From the NCBI GenBank assembly GCA_963777605.1, contig CAVZRV010000024.1:1-13845 (forward strand): a stretch of 13,845 nucleotides of DNA, written 5' to 3'. The position numbers and the translations under genes are program-made. Origin of the DNA: an uncultured Acidobacteriota bacterium (GTDB lineage: Bacteria > Acidobacteriota > UBA6911 > RPQK01 > JAPXNP01). Within the stretch, counting starts at the first letter, position 1; each line of letters opens with the position of its first letter. The notes under the pieces were generated by a model that worked only from the letters and a program-made list of their open reading frames with translations, was not told where the DNA came from and searched no databases. Below are positions 3,542 to 13,528 of this stretch, piece by piece.

Positions 3542-4054
3542 AATGGTAAGTACTGCCCCAGCCTGGGCCAGATTGAGCGGTTCTTCGAAGGAGCATTCAA
3601 ATCGGGCGAAGAGCGCAGGCAATGGGAGTCCCATCTCGAGATCTGCGATCAGTGCCGGGATACTCTTTTCGGTCACCAGGAACTGGCCCGAAGCTGGCAG
3701 CGTTTCCCGCTTACCTACCTCTCTCCCCAGTTTGACCAGGAACTTGAGGCCGCCTTGGCACGTGACACGACTCCTGCGGCCTCGAGCCACTGGAAGCGCC
3801 TTCTCTTATGGGCATATTGGGTCCTGACACTTGGTGCCAGTCTAGTGATCCTCGATTCGATCCAGGGCACAATCCAGATTCCAACCGCATTCTGGATTAC
3901 TTTGCTGGTATCCGCGACCCTTCCGCTGATCGCCTTGAGCTTTGCGTTGAAGCAGCTTCGCCTGGGATTCTTTGACCTGCTCCATTTCGCGACGATCGAT
4001 CCCGAGTTTCAGGCGGGTTCCAGTGATTCCGCGCTGCGGGGATCATTCGAATAG
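3542..4054 (+). CDS. Membrane-anchored zinc-binding anti-sigma factor (zf-HC2/ZAS)
   Basis: The frame is open from 3542 to TAG 4054: NGKYCPSLGQIERFF...WESHLEICDQCRD (HxxxCxxC at 3632-3655), followed by two TM helices. There is no in-frame start before the zinc motif (ATG 3543 is out of frame), probably an indel. Confidence 0.8.
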   Translation, partial: NGKYCPSLGQIERFFEGAFKSGEERRQWESHLEICDQCRDTLFGHQELARSWQRFPLTYLSPQFDQELEAALARDTTPAASSHWKRLLLWAYWVLTLGASLVILDSIQGTIQIPTAFWITLLVSATLPLIALSFALKQLRLGFFDLLHFATIDPEFQAGSSDSALRGSFE

Positions 4055-4061
4055 TGAAGCT

Positions 4062-4357
4062 TGCCAACTCCGGCCCGGGATCGCGGTTTTCACGCATTCA
4101 GTACGCAAGTCAGCGCGCGCGTATCCAGGCCTTCATCCATCGCCCACCCCTCGGATCTTGACTCCATCCCGCGGTTCCGGCCTCCGGCAGCACTTCCGCT
4201 GACTCACCATCGCCCGGAGCCGCGCTCGCTGACACTCGCGTTCTGAAATCGGGGTATCCAGGATCCAGCCGAGAACCAGGGCTTCTGAGTTCCACCGATC
4301 GCCCGAATCTCCATCCAGACGCGTCCAAATCATCCAGGATTTCCAGTTCATCCAAAT
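4062..4357 (+). other. Cassette U0: unique non-coding 5' part (hairpin CGCGGTTCCGG...CCGGAGCCGCG) plus a 3' tail shared with type A cassettes
   Basis: Lies between the degenerate first repeat and repeat 4358. The last ~100 bp align with type A tails (CCAGGATCCAGCCGA...TCCACCGATCGCC...TCATCCAAAT). Confidence 0.7.
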
Positions 4358-4416
4358 TGAAGTTTCAGGTCAGCCCCGCCGCCGCGCCCGCCGCGGATCA
4401 TTCAGAGAGTGAAACT

Positions 4417-5134
4417 GGACCTGGCGCTGGAGGCGCCTTGGTTTCAGCCCAGGGCTTGCCCTGGGTCTGGGGTCCCGGCAAGGCGATCGCGGCCTGTAAG
4501 GTCGCGCCGATTCTTCACGTCCGAAGAGGTGTGCCGCCCTTTCAGGGCTGGATTCTTGATGGGTGGGCCGTGAACCCAGGCAAATGCCTGGGCTGGAAAC
4601 AGGCCCCCTTCAGGGGCCCGCCCGGCGCCGATCCTGTGATCCTCACTCATCCACGTCTGGCACCGGACCAGGAACCAGGTTCCAGCCGATAATCGCGTCC
4701 CTGGCTCTCCACCGATCGCCTCAATCCCGTCCAGACGCGTCCAAATCTTCCAGGATTTCCAACTCATCCAAATGAAGTTTTAAGTCAGCCGGGCCCCCGG
4801 CGCCGCGCCCCCGCGGATCATTCAGAGAGTGAAACTGGGCTGGTGCTGGCGCCTTGGTTTCAGGCCAGGGTTCCCTGGGTCTTGGTCCTGCACTTCGGCG
4901 GCCAATCGCGCCGGAATCGGAGCGGAGACGTGCCGCCCTTTCAGGGCGGATTCAGCCCGGTGGCCGTGAACCCAGCAAATGCCGGCTGGAAATCAGGCGC
5001 CCTGCGATCCTGTGATCCTCACTCATCCGCGTCTGGCAACCAGCCAGGTTCCGCCATATTCCCTGGCCTCCACCGATCGCCTCAATCCCCGTCCAGACGC
5101 GTCCAAATCATCCAGGATTTCCAACTCATCCGAA
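4417..5134 (+). repeat. Two type A non-coding REP/REPIN-like cassettes (4417-4772; deleted/degenerate copy 4837-5134)
   Basis: Same sequence family as 8495-10095, with hairpins such as GCCCTTTCAGGGC; the second copy has many short deletions. Confidence 0.88.
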
Positions 5135-5226
5135 TGAAGTTTCAAGTCAGCCCCGCCCCCGGCCGCCGCCGGACCATTCAGAGAGTGAAACTGAGCCAAG
5201 CCTGCGAGAGTCGGCTATGCTTGCGT

Positions 5227-5389
5227 TCGGCACAGGCCCGGGCAGTTCAGACCCGTTGTGCACTGGAGCATGTTGCCCCAAAGTCAGCCTGGTTTCGAGT
5301 GAGGCGATCATTCATTGGCGAGGCCGCTCAGGGCACTCCCCGAAGTCAGAATCCAAATTCACGCCACCTCGAGCCCGAGCCTGTGCCGA
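5227..5389 (+). ncRNA. Putative IS110 bridge RNA (copy in IS unit 1)
   Basis: Lies in the non-coding end upstream of the recombinase. Closed by a stem 5227-5243/5373-5389 (16 of 17 complementary). Contains AAGTCAGCC (5281-5289) and GATCATTCA (5306-5314), identical to the two halves of the array repeat. Confidence 0.75.
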
Positions 5390-5412
5390 TTCACCAGGAG
5401 GACAAAGCTAGC

Positions 5413-6789
5413 ATGAGATCGAAGCGGAAGTCGAGAAGTCGGAAGCGTCGACAGGGTTTGCGAGTGATCCGGGAGCGGGTGGCGGGAATCGATCTGGGTT
5501 CGTGCGAAAGCGCCGGGTGTTGGCCCGATCGGGAGACGGGCCAGTTGAAGGTCCTTTGTTTTGGGACGACGACACCGGAGTTGGAGTTGGTATTGGACGG
5601 ACTCGAGGCCGACAGGATCGAATCGGTGGCGATGGAAGCGACCGGGGTGTACTGGATCCCGCTGTACGAGCTGTTGGTGTCGCGGGGATTCGAAGTGGTG
5701 CTGGTCAATGCGCGGCAGTTGAAGTACGTCCCGGGCCGCAAGACCGACATCAAGGATTGCCAGTGGATCCAGTTGCTGCACAGTTGTGGTTTGCTGCGGG
5801 GATCGTTCCGACCCGCCGAAGCGATCTGTCAGTTGCGGGCGCTCGAGCGGGAGCGGGCCGGACTGGTGGGGCTGGCGGGGCAGGCGGTGCAGATGATGCA
5901 GAAGGCGCTCGACCAGATGAACGTGCAGGTGCACCGGGCGGTGACGGATCTGACGGGACAGACCGGAATGGCGATCGTGCGGGCGATGGTCGGCGGCGAA
6001 CGGGATCCGTTTCGACTGGCGGCTTTGCGGGACCGGCGCTGTCGGAAGTCGGAAGCCAAAATAGCGGAGCATCTGACGGGGACGTGGCGGGAGGAACACC
6101 TGTTCAACCTGGGCAAAGCGTTGGAGTGGTATGACTTCGTGCAGGGTCAACTGGCCGACTATGACGAGGAGATCGGACGCGTGCTCCACCGACTCGAGGC
6201 GAGCGACCGAGCCGATCAGGAGCCGGGGCCCCATCCCCAGCCCACCAAGGAGCGGGCGCTGAACAAACGGGGAGAGCAGCAGCGACGCACGATGCTGTGG
6301 CGGGTGACCGGCGTGGACCTGACCCGGATCGACGGCATCGCTGCGCCGGCGGCCCAACGCATCCTCAGCGAGATCGGCCTGGATCTGTCGGCGTTTCCGG
6401 TCGAAAAGCACTTCGTGTCCTGGCTGCGACTGAGTCCAAAGACCGCCTACTCCGCCGGCAAACCCCTGCGCAAACGTCGCCAGGGCACCGGCTCCACCCG
6501 CGTGGCCAATGTCCTGAGGATGGCCGCGCTGTCCCTGAAACATTCGCAGTCGGCGATGGGAGCCTACTTCCGCCACATCGCCCGACGCAAAGGAGGGGGC
6601 ACCGCCGTCTTCGCCACCGCCCGCAAACTGGCTCAGTACATCTACCGCATGCTCCGCTTCGGTCAGGACTATGTCGACGAAGGCGCCGAAGCCTACGAAG
6701 CACGCTACCGGCTCAAACGGTTCCAGTCCCTCACCAGCACGGCCCAAACCATGGGCTACAAACTGGTTCCGGTGGAGGTCCAAGGATGA
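5413..6789 (+). CDS. IS110-family transposase/recombinase (DEDD RuvC-like domain plus Transposase_20 domain), 458 aa
   Basis: AGGAGG at 5396-5401 and ATG 5413. Catalytic motifs GIDLG, MEATG and RKTDIKD; C-terminal 'IDGIA...SEIG.DLSAF..EKHFVSWLRL.P...YSAGK' with the putative catalytic Ser; 'ATARKLA'. Its stop TGA is the first 3 nt of the array repeat. Confidence 0.96.
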   Translation: MRSKRKSRSRKRRQGLRVIRERVAGIDLGSCESAGCWPDRETGQLKVLCFGTTTPELELVLDGLEADRIESVAMEATGVYWIPLYELLVSRGFEVVLVNARQLKYVPGRKTDIKDCQWIQLLHSCGLLRGSFRPAEAICQLRALERERAGLVGLAGQAVQMMQKALDQMNVQVHRAVTDLTGQTGMAIVRAMVGGERDPFRLAALRDRRCRKSEAKIAEHLTGTWREEHLFNLGKALEWYDFVQGQLADYDEEIGRVLHRLEASDRADQEPGPHPQPTKERALNKRGEQQRRTMLWRVTGVDLTRIDGIAAPAAQRILSEIGLDLSAFPVEKHFVSWLRLSPKTAYSAGKPLRKRRQGTGSTRVANVLRMAALSLKHSQSAMGAYFRHIARRKGGGTAVFATARKLAQYIYRMLRFGQDYVDEGAEAYEARYRLKRFQSLTSTAQTMGYKLVPVEVQG

Positions 6790-6877
6790 AGTTTCAAGTC
6801 AGCCCCGCCCCCGGCGCCGCCGGACCATTCAGAGAGTGAAACTGAGCCAAGCCTGCGAGAGTCGGCTATGCTTGCGT

Positions 6878-7040
6878 TCGGCACAGGCCCGGGCAGTTCA
6901 GACCCGTTGTGCACTGGAGCATGTTGCCCCAAAGTCAGCCTGGTTTCGAGTGAGGCGATCATTCATTGGCGAGGCCGCTCAGGGCACTCCCCGAAGTCAG
7001 AATCCAAATTCACGCCACCTCGAGCCCGAGCCTGTGCCGA
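6878..7040 (+). ncRNA. Putative IS110 bridge RNA (copy in IS unit 2)
   Basis: Same sequence as 5227-5389, offset by 1651 bp. Confidence 0.75.
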
Positions 7041-7063
7041 TTCACCAGGAGGACAAAGCTAGC

Positions 7064-8440
7064 ATGAGATCGAAGCGGAAGTCGAGAAGTCGGAAGCGTC
7101 AACAGGGTTTGCGAGTGATCCGGGAGCGGGTGGCGGGAATCGATCTGGGTTCGTGCGAAAGCGCCGGGTGTTGGCCCGATCGGGAGACGGGCCAGTTGAA
7201 GGTCCTTTGTTTTGGGACGACGACACCGGAGTTGGAGTTGGTATTGGACGGACTCGAGGCCGACAGGATCGAATCGGTGGCGATGGAAGCGACCGGGGTG
7301 TACTGGATCCCGCTGTACGAGCTGTTGGTGTCGCGGGGATTCGAAGTGGTGCTGGTCAATGCGCGGCAGTTGAAGTACGTCCCGGGCCGCAAGACCGACA
7401 TCAAGGATTGCCAGTGGATCCAGTTGCTGCACAGTTGTGGTTTGCTGCGGGGATCGTTCCGACCCGCCGAAGCGATCTGTCAGTTGCGGGCGCTCGAGCG
7501 GGAGCGGGCCGGACTGGTGGGGCTGGCGGGGCAGGCGGTGCAGATGATGCAGAAGGCGCTCGACCAGATGAACGTGCAGGTGCACCGGGCGGTGACGGAT
7601 CTGACGGGACAGACCGGAATGGCGATCGTGCGGGCGATGGTCGGCGGCGAACGGGATCCGTTTCGACTGGCGGCTTTGCGGGACCGGCGCTGTCGGAAGT
7701 CGGAAGCCAAAATAGCGGAGCATCTGACGGGGACGTGGCGGGAGGAACACCTGTTCAACCTGGGCAAAGCGTTGGAGTGGTATGACTTCGTGCAGGGTCA
7801 ACTGGCCGACTATGACGAGGAGATCGGACGCGTGCTCCACCGACTCGAGGCGAGCGACCGAGCCGATCAGGAGCCGGGGCCCCATCCCCAGCCCACCAAG
7901 GAGCGGGCGCTGAACAAACGGGGAGAGCAGCAGCGACGCACGATGCTGTGGCGGGTGACCGGCGTGGACCTGACCCGGATCGACGGCATCGCTGCGCCGG
8001 CGGCCCAACTCATCCTCAGCGAGATCGGCCTGGATCTGTCGGCGTTTCCGGTCGAAAAGCACTTCGTGTCCTGGCTGCGACTGAGTCCAAAGACCGCCTA
8101 CTCCGCCGGCAAACCCCTGCGCAAACGTCGCCAGGGCACCGGCTCCACCCGCGTGGCCAATGTCCTGAGGATGGCCGCGCTGTCCCTGAAACATTCGCAG
8201 TCGGCGATGGGAGCCTACTTCCGCCACATCGCCCGACGCAAAGGAGGGGGCACCGCCGTCTTCGCCACCGCCCGCAAACTGGCTCAGTACATCTACCGCA
8301 TGCTCCGCTTCGGTCAGGACTATGTCGACGAAGGCGCCGAAGCCTACGAAGCACGCTACCGGCTCAAACGGTTCCAGTCCCTCACCAGCACGGCCCAAAC
8401 CATGGGCTACAAACTGGTTCCGGTGGAGGTCCAAGGATGA
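7064..8440 (+). CDS. IS110-family transposase/recombinase, 458 aa (second copy)
   Basis: Same motifs as 5413-6789, with two amino-acid differences (R>Q near the N-terminus; QRI>QLI). Confidence 0.96.
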   Translation: MRSKRKSRSRKRQQGLRVIRERVAGIDLGSCESAGCWPDRETGQLKVLCFGTTTPELELVLDGLEADRIESVAMEATGVYWIPLYELLVSRGFEVVLVNARQLKYVPGRKTDIKDCQWIQLLHSCGLLRGSFRPAEAICQLRALERERAGLVGLAGQAVQMMQKALDQMNVQVHRAVTDLTGQTGMAIVRAMVGGERDPFRLAALRDRRCRKSEAKIAEHLTGTWREEHLFNLGKALEWYDFVQGQLADYDEEIGRVLHRLEASDRADQEPGPHPQPTKERALNKRGEQQRRTMLWRVTGVDLTRIDGIAAPAAQLILSEIGLDLSAFPVEKHFVSWLRLSPKTAYSAGKPLRKRRQGTGSTRVANVLRMAALSLKHSQSAMGAYFRHIARRKGGGTAVFATARKLAQYIYRMLRFGQDYVDEGAEAYEARYRLKRFQSLTSTAQTMGYKLVPVEVQG

Positions 8441-8494
8441 AGTTTCAAGTCAGCCCCGCCCCCGGCGGCGCCGGATCATTCAGAGAGTGAAACT

Positions 8495-10095
8495 GGACCT
8501 GGCGCTGGAGGCGCCTTGGTTTCAGCCAAGGGCTTGCCCTGGGTTTGTGGTCCTGCACTTCGATTGCGGCCTGTAAGGTCGCGCCGATTCTTCACGTCCG
8601 GAGAGCTGTGCCGCCCTTTCAGGGCTGGATTCTTGATGGGTGGGCCGTGAACCCAGGCAAATGCCTGGGCTGGAAACAGGCCCCCTTCAGGGGCCAGTCC
8701 GGCGCCGATCCCGTGATCATCACTCATCCACGTCTGGCACCGGACCGAGGAACCAGGATCCAGCCGATAATCACGTCCCTGGCTCTCCACCGATCGCCTC
8801 AATCCCCGTCCAGACGCATCCAATTCGTCCAGGTTCTTCAACTCATCCCAAATGAAGTTTCAGGTTAGCCCCGCCCCCGGCGCGCGCCGGATCATTCAGA
8901 GAGTGAAACTGGACCTGGCGCTGGAGGCGCCTTGGTTTCAGCCCAGGGCTTGCCCTGGGTTTGTGGTCCGGCAAATCGATTGCGGCCTGTAAGGTCGCGC
9001 CGATTCTTCACGTCCGGAGAGCTGTGCCGCCCTTTCAGGGCTGGATTCTTGATGGGTGGGCCGTGAACCCAGGCAAATGCCTGGGCTGGAAACAGGCCCC
9101 CTTCAGGGGCCAGTCCGGCGCCGATCCCGTGATCATCACTCATCCACGTCTGGCACCGGACCAGGAACCAGGATCCAGCCGATAATCACGTCCCTGGCTC
9201 TCCACCGATCGCCTCAATCCCCGTCCAGACGCATCCAATTCGTCCAGGTTCTTCAACTCATCCCAAATGAAGTTTCAAGTCAGCCCCGCCCCCGGCGGCG
9301 CCGGATCATTCAGAGAGTGAAACTGGACCTGGCGCTGGAGGCGCCTTGGTTTTCAGCCCAGGCTTGCCCTGGGTTTGTGGTCCTGCACTTCGATTGCGGC
9401 CTGTAAGGTCGCGCCGATTCTTCACGTCCGGAGAGCTGTGCCGCCCTTTCAGGGCTGGATTCTTGATGGGTGGGCCGTGAACCCAGGCAAATGCCTGGGC
9501 TGGGAACAGGCCCCCTTCAGGGGCCAGTCCGGCGCCGATCCCGTGATCATCACTCATCCACGTCTGGCACCGGACCAGGAACCAGGATCCAGCCGATAAT
9601 CACGTCCCTGGCTCTCCACCGATCGCCTCAATCCCCGTCCAGACGCATCCAATTCGTCCAGGTTCTTCAACTCATCCCAAATGAAGTTTCAAGTCAGCCC
9701 CGCCCCCGGCGGCGCCGGATCATTCAGAGAGTGAAACTGGACCTGGCGCTGGAGGCGCCTTGGTTTCAGCCCAGGGCTTGCCCTGGGTTTGTGGTCCTGC
9801 ACTTCGATTGCGGCCTGTAAGGTCGCGCCGATTCTTCACGTCCGGAGAGCTGTGCCGCCCTTTCAGGGCTGGATTCTTGATGGGTGGGCCGTGAACCCAG
9901 GCAAATGCCTGGGCTGGAAACAGGCCCCCTTCAGGGGCCAGTCCGGCGCCGATCCCGTGATCATCACTCATCCACGTCTGGCACCGGACCAGGAACCAGG
10001 ATCCAGCCGATAATCACGTCCCTGGCTCTCCACCGATCGCCTCAATCCCCGTCCAGACGCATCCAATTCGTCCAGGTTCTTCAACTCATCCCAAA
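8495..10095 (+). repeat. Four tandem type A non-coding cassettes (8495-8852, 8911-9267, 9325-9681, 9739-10095), period 414-415 bp
   Basis: Near-identical units with an inverted pair of REP-like palindrome clusters followed by a TCCA-rich tail; no conserved credible ORF. Confidence 0.92.
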
Positions 10096-10152
10096 TGAAG
10101 TTTCAAGTCAGCCCCGCCCCCGGCCGCCGCCGGACCATTCAAAGTGTGAAAC

Positions 10153-10181
10153 TTGCCGCGGCCGCATCAATCGATTAAAAT
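10153..10181 (+). promoter_or_regulatory. Sigma70-like promoter TTGCCG-N17-TAAAAT of the type B cassette (repeated at 10569-10597 and 10984-11012)
   Basis: -35 at 10153-10158, 17-bp spacer, -10 at 10176-10181, about 10 nt upstream of the RNA's terminal stem. Confidence 0.7.
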
Positions 10182-10190
10182 CCACTGCGC

Positions 10191-10353
10191 GGCATGAGCA
10201 GTGGCAGTTAAGACCCTCGAGGCACTGGCGCATTTTTGCCCCAAAGTCAGCTTGGTCCCGGGCTGTGCGATCATTCATTAGTGAGGCTCTTGGAGCACTC
10301 CTCAAGGTCAGAATAGACCATTCAGACAGCCACCCCGGGCCACCGTTCATGCC
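10191..10353 (+). ncRNA. Putative stand-alone bridge RNA, B1
   Basis: Terminal stem GGCATGAGCAGTGGC/GCCACCGTTCATGCC shows compensatory changes relative to the IS copy. Guide-like AAGTCAGC at 10244-10251 and GATCATTCA at 10269-10277. Confidence 0.72.
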
Positions 10354-10606
10354 CCTTTTGAAAAGCCTGCTCATGCGGATTCGCGGAGATTGGGCGTGGT
10401 GTCCCCATCACGCTCAAACGGCTCGATAGACGACTTTTTTCTCGCCACTCGCTGTTCTCAGCGGCAGCAGCATCTCTCACAGAATACAAGAGTTAGCGGA
10501 ATTGCCGAGATTGAAGTTTCAGGTCAGCCCCGCCCCCGGCCGCCGCCGGACCATTCAAAGTGTGAAACTTGCCGCGGCCGCATCAATCGATTAAAATCCA
10601 CTGCGC

Positions 10607-10769
10607 GGCATGAGCAGTGGCAGTTAAGACCCTCGAGGCACTGGCGCATTTTTGCCCCAAAGTCAGCTTGGTCCCGGGCTGTGCGATCATTCATTAGTGA
10701 GGCTCTTGGAGCACTCCTCAAGGTCAGAATAGACCATTCAGACAGCCACCCCGGGCCACCGTTCATGCC
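10607..10769 (+). ncRNA. Putative stand-alone bridge RNA, B2
   Basis: Copy of B1. Confidence 0.72.
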
Positions 10770-11021
10770 CCTTTTGAAAAGCTGTTCATGCGGATTCGCG
10801 GAGATTGGGCGTGGTGTCCCCATCACGCTCAAACGGCTCGATAGACGACTTTTTTCTCGCCACTCGCTGTTCTCAGCGGCAGCAGCATCTCTCACAGAAT
10901 ACAAGAGTTAGCGGAATTGCCGAGATTGAAGTTTCAGGTCAGCCCCGCCCCCGGCCGCCGCCGGACCATTCAAAGTGTGAAACTTGCCGCGGCCGCATCA
11001 ATCGATTAAAATCCACTGCGC

Positions 11022-11183
11022 GGCATGAGCAGTGGCAGTTAAGACCCTCGAGGCACTGGCGCATTTTTGCCCCAAAGTCAGCTTGGTCCCGGGCTGTGCG
11101 ATCATTCATTAGTGAGGCTCTTGGAGCACTCCTCAAGGTCAGAATAGACCATTCAGACAGCCACCCGGGCCACCGTTCATGCC
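11022..11183 (+). ncRNA. Putative stand-alone bridge RNA, B3
   Basis: Copy of B1 with a 1-nt homopolymer difference. Confidence 0.72.
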
Positions 11184-11397
11184 CCTTTTGAAAAGCCTGC
11201 TCATGCGGATTCGCGGAGATTGGCGTGGTGTCCCCATCACGCTCAAACGGCTCGATAGACGACTTTTTTCTCGCCACTCGCTGTTCTCAGCGGCAGCAGC
11301 ATCTCTCACAGAATACAAGAGTTAGCGGAATTGCCGAGATTGAAGTTTCAGGTCAGCCCCGCCCCCGGCGGCGCCGGACCATTCAGAGAGTGAAACT

Positions 11398-11670
11398 GGT
11401 GAAGCATCGCCAGATGAGCGCGCCAACGGCGCAGGGTCATTTCCAGCCCGGCGGCAACGCCCCGGGAATCGGAGCCAAGACGGCAATGCAGCACTGAAAG
11501 TGCGATTCAGTCCCGGCGGCGGACGATTTCAGAAGAACCCGGAAATCAAGAACCCTGGATTGAGAAGGTTCACTTCCGCCGGGCAAGCTGCCCGGCCGCC
11601 ATAAGGCAGGGATGCCTGGATTACTTTCCCTCCAGAAACGAGAAACCAGGAACCAGGAACTCATCCCGAT
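11398..11670 (+). other. Cassette C: unique non-coding unit with a REP-like palindrome cluster and heptamer repeats
   Basis: GCGCCAACGGCGC...CCAGCCCGGCGGCAACGCCCGGG...GCACTGAAAGTGC, hairpin CGGGCAAGCTGCCCG, tail AGAAACG-AGAAACC-AGGAACC-AGGAACT; flanked by standard array repeats. Confidence 0.75.
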
Positions 11671-11727
11671 TGAAGTTTCAAGTCAGCCCCGCCCCCGGCG
11701 GCGCCGGACCATTCAAAGAGTGAAACT

Positions 11728-12504
11728 GGACCTGGCGCTGGAGGCGCCTTGGTTTCAGCCCAGGGCTTGCCTTGGGTCTGTGGTCCCGGCAAGGCGATCG
11801 CGGCCTGTAAGGTCGCGCCGATTCTTCCGTCCGAAGAGCTGTTCAGCCCTTTCAGGGCTGGATTCTTGATGGGGGGGCCGTAAACCCAGGCAAATGCCTG
11901 AGCTGGAAACAGGCCCCCTTCGAGGGGCCCGCCCGGCGCCGATACCGTGATCATCACTCATCCACGTCTGGCACCGGACCCGGAACCAGGATCCAGCCGA
12001 TAATCACGTCCCTGGCTCTCCACCGATCGCCTCAATCCCCGTCCAGACGCATCCAATTCGTCCAGGTTCTTCAACTCATCCCAAATGAAGTTTCAAGTCA
12101 GCCCCGCCCCCGCGCCCTCCGTCGGATCATTCAGAGAGTGAAACTCGACCTGGCGCTGGAAGGCGCCTTGGTTTCAGACCAGGGCTTGCCCTGGGTTCGT
12201 GGTCCCGGCAAGGCGATCGCGGCCTGTAAGGTCGCGCCGATTCTTCACGTCCGGAGAGCTGTGCCGCCCTTTCAGGGCTGGATTCTTGATGGGTGGGCCG
12301 TGAACCCAGGCAAATGCCTGGGCTGGAAACAGGCCCCCTTCAGGGGCCAGTCCGGCGCCGATCCTGTGATCATCACTCATCCACGTCTGGCACCGGACCC
12401 GGAACCAGGATCCAGCCGATAATCACGTCCCTGGCTCTCCACCGATCGCCCGAATTCCCATCCAAACGCGTCCAAATCATCCAGTTCTTCCAGTTCATCC
12501 AAAT
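11728..12504 (+). repeat. Two more type A cassettes (11728-12085, 12146-12504)
   Basis: Same family. They share the variant 'GGTCCCGGCAAGGCGATCGC' with the 4417 copy rather than with the central four. Confidence 0.9.
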
Positions 12505-12548
12505 TGAAGTTTCAGGTCAGCGGCGCCCCTCCCGCTACGCGCGGAAGA

Positions 12549-12577: not shown

Positions 12578-12612
12578 CGTGCTCAACAACTCCTGCGGAA
12601 GGAAAGATTTCC

Positions 12613-13528
12613 ATGAATAACGAATCTTCGCGTCGAGATTTTCTCAAGACTTCTGTGCCATGGTTGCGGGTGCGGGAATCATGAGTTCCCTGGCCGGTGC
12701 TCCTCCGGCGTGCGGCCGTACCAAAGAAGGCCAAGCTCACCAAGGGCGTGGTGTGGGGCACGCTGCCCGAAGAGCTCAGCTACGACGAGCGCCTGAAACT
12801 CGCCGCGGATGCGGGCTTCGAAGTGGTCGAAGGGTAACCGTAGAGGACCCGCGCGAGGCAGAAAAGATCAAGACGGCGGCGGAGAAAGCCGGAATCCACC
12901 TCAGTTCCGTGATGAACCAGGCTCATTGGCCTTACCCCCTCTCGAGCAGCGATCCCGAAGTCGTCAAGAAGAGCCTCGATGGCATGCGCACCTCGCTTCG
13001 CAACGCCTCCTTGTGGGGCGCCGACGCCGTATTACTTGTGCCTGCCGTGGTTGATGCAGGAACCCCCTACCGTACCGCGTACGAACGCTCGCAAAAACAC
13101 ATTCGGGAACTGATCCCCCTGGCCGAGGAATTGAAGGTAGCCATCGCGGTCGAGGAGGTCTGGAATAAGTTCCTGTTGAGCCCGATGGAATTTGCCAACT
13201 ACGTCGACGAGTTCAAGAGCCCCTGGGTCCGGGCCTATTTTGACGTCGGAAACGTGGTCATCTTCGGCTACCCGCAGGACTGGATCCGCACATTGGGCAG
13301 CCGGATCAAGAAGGTCCATCTGAAAGACTTCAAGGTCATGACCACGGGGTTCAGCCCCTTCAGCACCGAGTTCGTCAACCTTGGCGACGGCGACATCGAC
13401 TGGCCCGAGGTTCGCAAAGCCCTGGACGAGATCGGGTACGAAGGCACCGTGATCGCCGAACTCGACGCGGGCGACCTGCCTACCTGACCGACGTCCGCAA
13501 ACGGATCGACCGCCTGCTGATGATTTAG
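12613..13528 (+). CDS. Tat-exported sugar phosphate isomerase/epimerase (xylose isomerase-like TIM barrel / AP endonuclease 2 family), apparently frameshifted
   Basis: N-terminal MNNESSRRDFLK twin-arginine motif. Core motifs 'IAVEEVWNKFLLSP', 'YFDVGN', 'VHLKDF' and 'LGDGDIDW..V..AL..IGY.G'. Frame changes in the 5' part and near 13480; the shifted frame ends YLTDVRKRIDRLLMI-TAG 13528. Confidence 0.85.

Follow-up and report, generated by a model that had tools for sequence, protein, structure and literature searches.

A putative non-autonomous IS110 element with its own bridge-RNA homolog in a head-to-tail array of an uncultured Acidobacteriota bacterium

Contig CAVZRV010000024.1 (C24) belongs to a metagenome bin of an uncultured Acidobacteriota bacterium (assembly GCA_963777605.1, here G000; 6.73 Mb in 53 contigs, 96.7% complete and 5.68% contaminated). 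The whole contig, 13,845 nucleotides (nt) long, was analysed and is called the window. Between ordinary genes encoding an extracytoplasmic-function (ECF) sigma factor and a xylose-isomerase-like protein, the window carries a head-to-tail array of 15 mobile units (Table 1). Typed by BLAST, the units follow the order X, A, A', IS, IS, A (four times), B (three times), C, A, A, where IS is an insertion sequence of the IS110 family. This text concerns B, a unit of 414-416 nt that encodes no transposase, has its left-end box and right-end motif in common with the IS, and contains a homolog of the structured leader RNA of the IS.

The units of the array can be delimited by their ends. A 16-nt motif (GAAGTTTCARGTYAGC) has 15 matches on the + strand of the window against 0.03 expected, and Tandem Repeats Finder reports an array period of 414-419 nt. 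At each unit junction, the right-end motif (GAAGTTTCARGTCAG, 15 nt) runs into the left end of the unit after it (~40 nt). In this IS110 lineage the left end is a GC-rich palindrome and then the box GGAYCATTCA..GTGAAAC. Across G000, 166 left-end boxes (GGAYCATTCARAGWGTGAAAC) were found. The right-end motif lies 12-26 nt upstream of 88 of them, most often at 19 nt; the other 78 have mostly unique DNA upstream, usually ending in xAGTCAG where the boundary is readable. At array ends elsewhere in G000, ...GAAGTTTCAGGTCAG passes directly into unique DNA, and its last letters vary somewhat. A unit is thus read as running from the GC-rich palindrome and left-end box through the right-end motif, with the crossover at or after CAG. 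It follows from this survey that the apparent "55-nt repeat" between units is one right end joined to the next left end.

Units A (~415 nt), C (~330 nt) and X (~300 nt) are dispersed, guide-less repeats that resemble miniature inverted-repeat transposable elements (MITEs). They share the ends of the IS, have no RNA gene, and give ~170 BLAST hits each in G000; the A units are ~95% identical. The IS lineage with its MITEs is a major repeat family of G000. Pairs of junction motifs ~150 nt apart are also present in this genome (C8:141836/141989 and C27:52458/52610) and may be small mini-elements. A reading of the array as an integron was rejected, in that the junctions read GTTTCA...TGAAAC and not the attC-type AAC...GTT, and the recombinase is of IS110 type; an integrase was not searched for.

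The two IS copies are 99.8% identical. Each encodes a protein of 458 amino acids (aa) with matches to PF01548 (E = 9.4e-20) and PF02371 (E = 8.7e-11), and the IS right end reads AGTCAG in four of four cases. Both leaders score 141.1 bits with R1, a model of this RNA built here. The recombinase start codon at 5413 is preceded by AGGAGG. The recombinase frame is open far 5' of the ATG, across leader and junction (4843-6789 and 6671-8440; 648 and 589 aa), which is taken as an effect of high G+C content and not as a longer protein.

Table 1. Features of the window, with flanks, guide blocks and ends of related elements in other genomes
Feature	Position	Strand	Remarks
Head-to-tail array, 15 mobile units	~4014-12520	+	left limit approximate
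IS110-family element, copy 1	5151-6802	+	leader RNA 5229-5387; recombinase open reading frame (ORF) 5413-6789
IS leader, first guide block AAAGTCAG	5280-5287	+	sense copy of left target flank and core
IS leader, second guide block GAAGTCAG	5342-5349	+	sense copy of the IS's own right end CAAGTCAG
IS110-family element, copy 2	6803-8453	+	in tandem with copy 1; leader RNA 6880-7038; ORF 7064-8440
B unit 1	10112-10527	+	left end, promoter-like site, RNA gene, 160-nt tail, right end
B unit 2	10528-10942	+	99.3% identical to unit 1; 1-nt deletion in tail
B unit 3	10943-11356	+	99.3% identical to unit 1; two 1-nt deletions
Sigma-70-like site TTGCCG-17-TAAAAT	10153-10181; also 10569-10597, 10984-11012	+	consensus match only
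B RNA body	10191-10353; also 10607-10769, 11022-11183	+	15-bp outer stem, two stem-loops with internal loops
B first guide block AAAGTCAG	10243-10250	+	as in IS
B second guide block AAGGTCAG	10304-10311	+	matches B's own right end CAGGTCAG
B tail	10354-10512	+	CCUUUU directly after outer stem; 12-bp hairpin
Right-end motif of B unit 1, GAAGTTTCAGGTCAG	10513-10527	+	crossover after CAG (predicted)
Bryobacterales IS, 48 copies			left flank ..CaAGCCAG; first block AAAGCCAG; right end ..CACACCAG; second block AACACCAG
Planctomycetota IS, 12 copies			left flank GGAGCCAG; first block AGAGCCAG; right end CAGGTCAG; second block CAGGUCAG
G029 variant a			left flank CATCTTAG; first block AAUCUUAG; right end CAGCTTAG; second block CAGCUUAG
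G029 variant b			left flank CAGGTTAG; first block AAGGUUAG; right end CAGCTTAG; second block CAGCUUAG

The original prediction, made from the letters of the window, described three transposase-free cassettes in which the site TTGCCG-N17-TAAAAT is followed by a homolog of the IS leader. All three sites were found, and a homolog of 162-163 nt starts 9 nt after each. They are the only promoter-like sites found in 4900-11700 (shuffled sequences gave 1.2 +/- 1.1), and the -35 hexamer abuts the conserved GTGAAAC of the left-end box. The interval given in that prediction (10153-11340) opens at the first promoter-like site and closes shortly before the last right end, while the units themselves cover 10112-11356. 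R1 scores the three RNA bodies at 149.5-157.7 bits, from unit 3, in which one 1-nt deletion shortens a bulge of the inner stem, to unit 1. No reading frame is kept in the tail, as the copies differ there by 1-nt insertions or deletions. Ten tail positions (10367-10376) can pair without mismatch with the 5' strand of the outer stem (10192-10201), and in copy 2 one changed letter makes a G-U pair. An alternative helix between these strands was rejected, as the minimum-energy fold still keeps the outer stem.

The promoter-like site was also compared with those of relatives. Hexamers resembling a -10 element lie 3-12 nt before the outer stem in both IS leaders (TATGCT, TAGGCT, TAGAAT) and transposase-free units (TAAAAT, TACAAT, TATTCT, TACCTT), so an internal promoter would be a trait of the lineage and not special to B. 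Other transposase-free units have TTTCCG-17-TACAAT, TTGGCA-17-TATTCT or TTGAGA-17-TACCTT at the same position. Their -10 hexamers are on the whole slightly nearer to consensus than those of the IS leaders, with five of six consensus letters in B against four of six in the IS.

The fold of the RNA was derived from nine aligned sequences taken from G000, two genomes of the same order (G029 and G030), and metagenome-assembled genomes (MAGs) of a Bryobacterales and a Planctomycetota bacterium, whose recombinases are 58% and 51% identical to that of the IS. It has a 15-bp outer stem around two stem-loops with internal loops, with 39 pairs. In this alignment 93.9% of the cells are paired and 16 of the 39 pairs have changed on both sides. 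Column shuffles did as well in 0 of 500 cases on each of four measures and in 1 of 500 on a fifth, and a control in which partners were slid by 1-3 columns was 31-49% paired. The RNA body of B is 68% identical to the IS leader and keeps every pair of this fold. Between the two, 27 pairs are identical, seven have changed on both sides and still pair, two have changed on one side (to a wobble or a pair), and three are unpaired in the IS only. The outer-stem changes quoted in the original prediction are present, as is the inner change from TCGAG/CTCGA to CCGGG/CCCGG; seven of 39 pairs are compensatory and none is broken in B. Single-sequence folds of the IS and B RNAs are alike (z = -3.9 and -2.5). 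B thus shows the two stem-loops with internal loops and the covariation of a bridge RNA. Rfam had no match at E <= 1 across the window.

Two blocks in the loops copy the ends and flanks of the elements. Both are on the 3' side of their loops, the first guide block in loop 1 and the second in loop 2. For the first block, B and the IS have the same letters (AAAGUCAG), and the next two letters are CC in the IS and CU in B. This shared block fits the flanks of solo insertions, which mostly end in xAGTCAG. The second block is GAAGUCAG in the IS and AAGGUCAG in B, where four extra letters follow it. The right ends are CAAGTCAG and CAGGTCAG, respectively, and the second blocks differ exactly as the right ends differ. 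The statement that the guide-like blocks are unchanged is thus correct for the first block and wrong for the second. B right ends read ..GGTCAG in seven of seven cases. Upstream of B-type units that do not follow another B, the CAAGTCAG right end is found in five of five, while the three units preceded by B or its variant B' (see below) have CAGGTCAG there. Among other junctions the CAAGTCAG form is in the minority, at 14 against 23 of these two forms. The independent insertions of B number fewer than five, because C24 and C8 are parallel loci. Both right-end forms are common among the guide-less MITEs (13 versus 11 for A and 3 versus 6 for C).

The same relation between blocks and ends was found in other families (Table 1). 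The second block matches the right end of its own element at 7-8 of 8 letters in ten of ten families, which have five different 7-mers, and matches the ends of other families at a mean of 3.7-6.4 letters. For the first block, 11 of 12 rows give a match of 7-8 letters out of 8, located 62-85 nt upstream of the RNA; each is the best match within a 90-nt window, for which chance is estimated at ~0.03 per family. The remaining row, the Bryobacterales cassette, had no first-block match in that window, and for the Bryobacterales IS the search picked an 8-mer other than the real left flank seen in its copies. The first block is often followed by one or two letters that repeat the beginning of the left end. 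On its 5' side, loop 2 has a further block (GAUCAUUCA) that is a copy of the left-end box found ~20 nt inside the element, and the two vary together (AUGAUUC/ATGATTC in G029 and CCUUCA/CCTTCA in the Planctomycetota element). In bridge-RNA terms, blocks for the left target and the left donor match their flanks and change with them; blocks for the right target and right donor were not found.

B is dispersed in its genome. BLAST and R1 together identified six full copies on four contigs of G000 (three on C24 and one each on C8, C21 and C51), as well as B', which is 86% identical, and one truncated copy. The RNA bodies are 100% identical in five of the six full copies. G000 contains four matches each to PF01548, PF02371 and the IS protein, all of them in the tandem IS pairs on C24 and C8, and no IS110 gene stands in or beside the three B units of the window. 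With only four IS110 genes in G000, all of this IS, B is not the leader of another IS there. Unlike a typical bridge RNA, B is not encoded next to a recombinase gene. It has features of a MITE-like non-autonomous element: it is short and transposase-free, has IS-like ends, and occurs at several loci with the expected insertion junctions. To call it an RNA gene, as was done originally, is too narrow, as B is a whole mobile cassette with IS ends at three or more loci.

The locus has a second copy at C8:328060-340592, with an array of similar, not identical, content: X, A, an untyped unit, IS, IS, truncated B plus A, B', B, C, A, A. On C25 there is a third copy, which lacks an array and whose flanks show ~85% identity. 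Given the 5.68% contamination of the bin, the C24, C8 and C25 loci may be strains rather than paralogs. Comparison of C24 with C8 gives 92-93% identity for the flanks, 99.6-99.8% for the IS copies and 100% for the B RNA bodies; the high identity of B and IS relative to the flanks fits recent movement or conversion of the units. Inside the truncated B on C8 (~331800-332000) a long C run is followed by a very long A run, probably an assembly artefact. C15 and C21 have arrays of different content at one site, with no clean empty site. Among the 20 sequencing runs listed as matching, the best were four soil DNA runs of one study, possibly the source. Contigs of source-community DNA join B to B (X3) or B to A (X1 and X2), and the B-to-B joint fits either a tandem or a circle.

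Relatives of the RNA were sought by scanning 76 genomes of the order, G000 included, with R1. Hits were obtained in 14 genomes, one of them G018, whose weakest hit has E = 2e-4. Outside G000, 24 hits were examined. A recombinase match begins ~60-90 nt downstream of 15 of them (spanning most of the protein in 11 and partial or split in four), six have no recombinase within 1,500 nt, and three loci end too soon. No B-like leader was found before a recombinase in the 75 further genomes. The RNA of B is 55-69% identical to the recombinase-preceding leaders of the sample, and its best match is a transposase-free unit of the same layout in G065, a genome of a different family (77% identical). The 68% identity to the neighbouring IS, the lack of any other IS110 gene in G000 and a nearest relative in the sample that is itself transposase-free support the original view that B is not a recent deletion derivative of that IS. 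B is also not near-identical to the leader of another full-length IS110 element in G000 or the 75 further genomes, as a simple deletion product would be. The 29-nt pattern of the B RNA had no match among Joint Genome Institute (JGI) metagenome contigs, where exact patterns miss diverged copies; the sole match to a 21-nt pattern was rejected, being an AT-rich contig not recognised by R1.

B-like units without an adjacent transposase, for which the original prediction had suggested a search, were found in G030, G065 and G060, and a second type in G076. The G065 unit (449 nt) has a left end, TTGGCA-17-TATTCT, the RNA, a ~190-nt tail and a right end, and its locus ends early. Its first block (AAGGUCAG) equals the second block of the G065 IS. 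About 60 nt before this unit (locus L169) lies a mini-element of ~60 nt in which the left-end box nearly abuts the right-end motif. The G060 unit directly follows an IS right end. G030 has at least four near-identical transposase-free units and 5-7 RNA hits, with a single IS110 locus that is broken (C1:137830-138488; a 178-aa open frame with a stop in the second domain). The hits without a recombinase also include one in G047 (L188) that covers half of the RNA, and a plain truncated IS in G046.

Of widest interest is that guide-carrying cassettes without a recombinase, their loops fitted to the cassettes' own ends, recur in this order and in a Bryobacterales genome, G076, and that ends which recreate the target would build arrays in this lineage. 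Of 99 R1 hits in G076, 17 are of a second RNA type (120.4 bits). The three regions examined contain ten second-type hits in tandem cassettes spaced 338-571 nt, including cassettes of 346 nt. No recombinase stands between the cassettes in these regions, and each array ends in a full IS. The cassette RNA departs from the otherwise nearly identical IS leader at the outer stem, with compensated changes, at both guide blocks and at the 5' block of loop 1. The guides are exchanged, with ACACCAG then AAGCCAG in the cassette and AAGCCAG then ACACCAG in the IS. By this exchange the cassette would aim at the right end of the IS, and the IS at the right end of the cassette. The cassette just before the IS ends in CAAGCCAG in three of three arrays; within the arrays the right ends are mixed, and both 7-mers are present. 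In three of three genomes examined the first block of the transposase-free unit matches either the right end of the co-resident IS (G000 and G076) or the donor block of the IS (G065). At several places in G076 (L197 262, 1108; L198 1364, 1439) the right end ..CACACCAG is joined directly to the letters after the in-gene guide block, or to the inner CCAG of the IS 3' end. The DNA that encodes the guide seems to act there as a half-site used for recombination, which would give truncated cassettes and 75-nt mini-repeats.

There is a weak hint that the RNA of B is expressed. In a wetland metatranscriptome (X17), one contig of 156 nt aligns to 10203-10358 and nowhere else in 9690-10520; uncovered parts of this interval in X17, X2 and X3 carry no information. 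The contig corresponds to the RNA body up to the U-run, without tail or left end, and its listed changes are placed in loops or bulges.

Taken together, B is probably a non-autonomous IS110 element that has lost the recombinase gene, has kept its own bridge RNA in retuned form, with a promoter-like site inside its left end, and would use the recombinase of the IS in trans. In the mechanism proposed here, the B RNA would be transcribed from its own promoter, starting near 10188 and ending at the U-run near 10358, and would load onto the recombinase encoded by the two IS copies (Table 1). Its first loop would pair with ..AAGTCAG sites, such as those at the right ends of the IS and numerous MITEs of the genome. 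The second loop would pair with right ends of the CAGGTCAG type, which B itself has, as do many A, C and X units. B, and perhaps those MITEs too, could then be excised and re-inserted under B's guide. Because in this lineage the right end is nearly equal to the left half of the target, each insertion would recreate the target at its right edge and so build head-to-tail arrays. The target recreated at the right edge of the IS would likewise account for the IS-IS tandems on C24 and C8.

Several observations weigh against this proposal. The start of the transcript and the binding of the B RNA by the recombinase are both predictions. The metatranscriptome contig is single and 95-99% alike, not identical, and its ends can reflect graph breaks or DNA carry-over. 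Selection on the RNA is not measurable within G000, as the B copies are almost identical. In B' one outer-stem pair is mismatched and the hairpin of the second loop carries a deletion, so B-type units do decay, and G030, with its RNA units and one degraded IS110 gene, indicates that units of this kind can persist after their recombinase has gone. The 5' block of loop 1 (GUUGUG in the IS and UCGAGG in B), compared with the flanks in both senses, gave no consistent right-half match; it changes together with the first guide in G076, and so probably matters. The second blocks of the IS and B differ at two of eight positions, only one of them within the seven pairing letters, and a one-letter mismatch of the guide might be tolerated. 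Furthermore, the left flank at tandem B-B junctions (CAGGTCAG) mismatches the first block of B, and the tandem copies may have come from ordinary unequal crossing-over.

Other explanations can be given for B. It could be the passive deletion relic of a lost, already diverged IS, moved by the RNA of the resident IS or by homologous recombination, with an inert RNA of its own. Plain truncated copies do exist in the order, such as a unit in G046 that is 99% identical to the G056 IS up to its break, and both the decaying B' and the units that G030 keeps without an intact recombinase would fit relics. A tree of the RNAs neither shows nor excludes a single clade of transposase-free units (four changes, with 198 of 500 shuffles as low; one of 13 inner branches well supported; G047_IS left out for its long insertion), and the tail of B and that of the G065 unit show weak homology (z = 2.4, a value reached in 7 of 500 shuffles). 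Other observations speak against a relic. RNA genes are absent from the A, C and X MITEs, which are far more numerous than B, so no such gene is required in cis, yet B keeps all pairs of the fold, has a -10 hexamer closer to consensus than that of the IS, and has a donor block that fits its own end. The exchange of guides on a nearly unchanged RNA in G076 would also be hard to reach by decay. A passive relic is regarded as fairly unlikely.

The RNA could instead be a regulator, either a decoy that titrates the recombinase or one that steers it to occupied sites and so damps transposition of the IS. The first block that B shares with the IS, and three tandem copies with better promoter-like sites, would suit such a role, and a regulatory function has been proposed for Ssr9 of ISPpu9 (PMC12288879). 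A decoy, however, needs neither a donor block matched to the right end of B nor complete element ends, and B is found at several loci in the manner of a mobile unit. This role appears improbable. It is very doubtful that the tandem B copies were created by assembly of a repeat-rich metagenome bin. The window is a whole contig of 13.8 kb from a bin with some contamination, a parallel locus on C8 is 92-93% identical, and a long homopolymer run interrupts the truncated B there; against this, the three copies differ by point changes and 1-nt insertions or deletions, the X3 contig joins the end of B to the start of B, and C8 independently has B' beside B.

A broader proposal goes beyond B as a retuned non-autonomous element. 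Guide-only parasites of bridge recombinases may be a distinct kind of mobile element, with their own promoter and reprogrammed loops, aimed at the right end of the IS, forming integron-like arrays with guide-less MITEs because the target is recreated by the right end, and having arisen in at least two phyla. This is put forward tentatively and is held with somewhat less than even confidence.

Two features of the window lie apart from these questions. A twin-arginine-like start (MNNESSRRDFLK) at 12594-12700 is out of frame with the following xylose-isomerase-like ORF (12660-13487), and upstream of the array an S15 peptidase is split over two overlapping ORFs (771-1487 and 1373-2209). Frameshifts or errors of sequencing may explain both.

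The bridge RNAs known so far belong to insertion sequences that encode their recombinase. Literature searches on IS110/bridge RNA, MITE, non-autonomous and orphan elements found no description of an element with a bridge RNA only. A natural cassette that spreads with a retuned RNA only, if true, would show that a guide and its enzyme can evolve apart, each as a mobile unit of its own, and would explain the origin of hundreds of guide-less MITEs and of long head-to-tail arrays in these genomes. It would also make available natural scaffold pairs that serve the same recombinase: the pair of G000 shares 68% identity, and that of G076 is almost the same apart from the exchanged loops. With such pairs one could ask which positions of the RNA the protein reads.

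In integrons, cassette arrays consist of head-to-tail units that are inserted in turn at a site recreated each time. The array described here differs from these in having no attC-type site and in its enzyme, an RNA-guided DEDD recombinase; the analysis did not include a search for an integrase. The closest molecular parallel is the bridge RNA of IS621, a structured RNA of ~160 nt in the left end with two stem-loops and internal loops (PMC11208160, PMC11208158). As in the IS110 family generally, where the bridge RNA stands upstream of a DEDD/Transposase_20 recombinase gene, the IS leader precedes its recombinase, and, as in IS621, loop blocks copy target and donor flanks including the core, here those of the left target and left donor. 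The IS621 bridge RNA also works when supplied in trans (PMC11208160). In contrast to IS621, for which the blocks are described on the 5' side of the loops, the guide blocks lie here on the 3' side, so the layout of this lineage is different. Two further differences from IS621 are that the 5' block of loop 2 (GAUCAUUCA) copies a box ~20 nt inside the left end and that B has no recombinase gene beside it.

Arrays of IS110 elements have been described in expanded loci with tandem full IS copies, tandem non-coding units and left-donor matches at the boundaries, and a bridge RNA was suggested to act in trans for elements without a 5' untranslated region (bioRxiv 10.64898/2026.08.14.744561). In the parts of that preprint examined there is no unit with its own retuned bridge-RNA gene, although its supplements may list such units. 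Insertion as described there regenerates no target, whereas here the right end is nearly equal to the left half of the target, which would thus be regenerated. The closest parallel for B as a mobile unit is MITEPpu9 of Pseudomonas putida, in which the small-RNA gene ssr9 stands between ISPpu9 end boxes and which forms its own circles through the recombinase of the IS (PMC12288879). It is found beside the IS or alone, sometimes in tandem, and ISPpu9 is itself an IS110 element with a native promoter and not a junction promoter (PMC12288879). Like MITEPpu9, B has a small-RNA gene between IS end boxes. Ssr9, as described, is not a bridge RNA and is not needed for transposition, whereas B carries a bridge-RNA homolog fitted to its own end.

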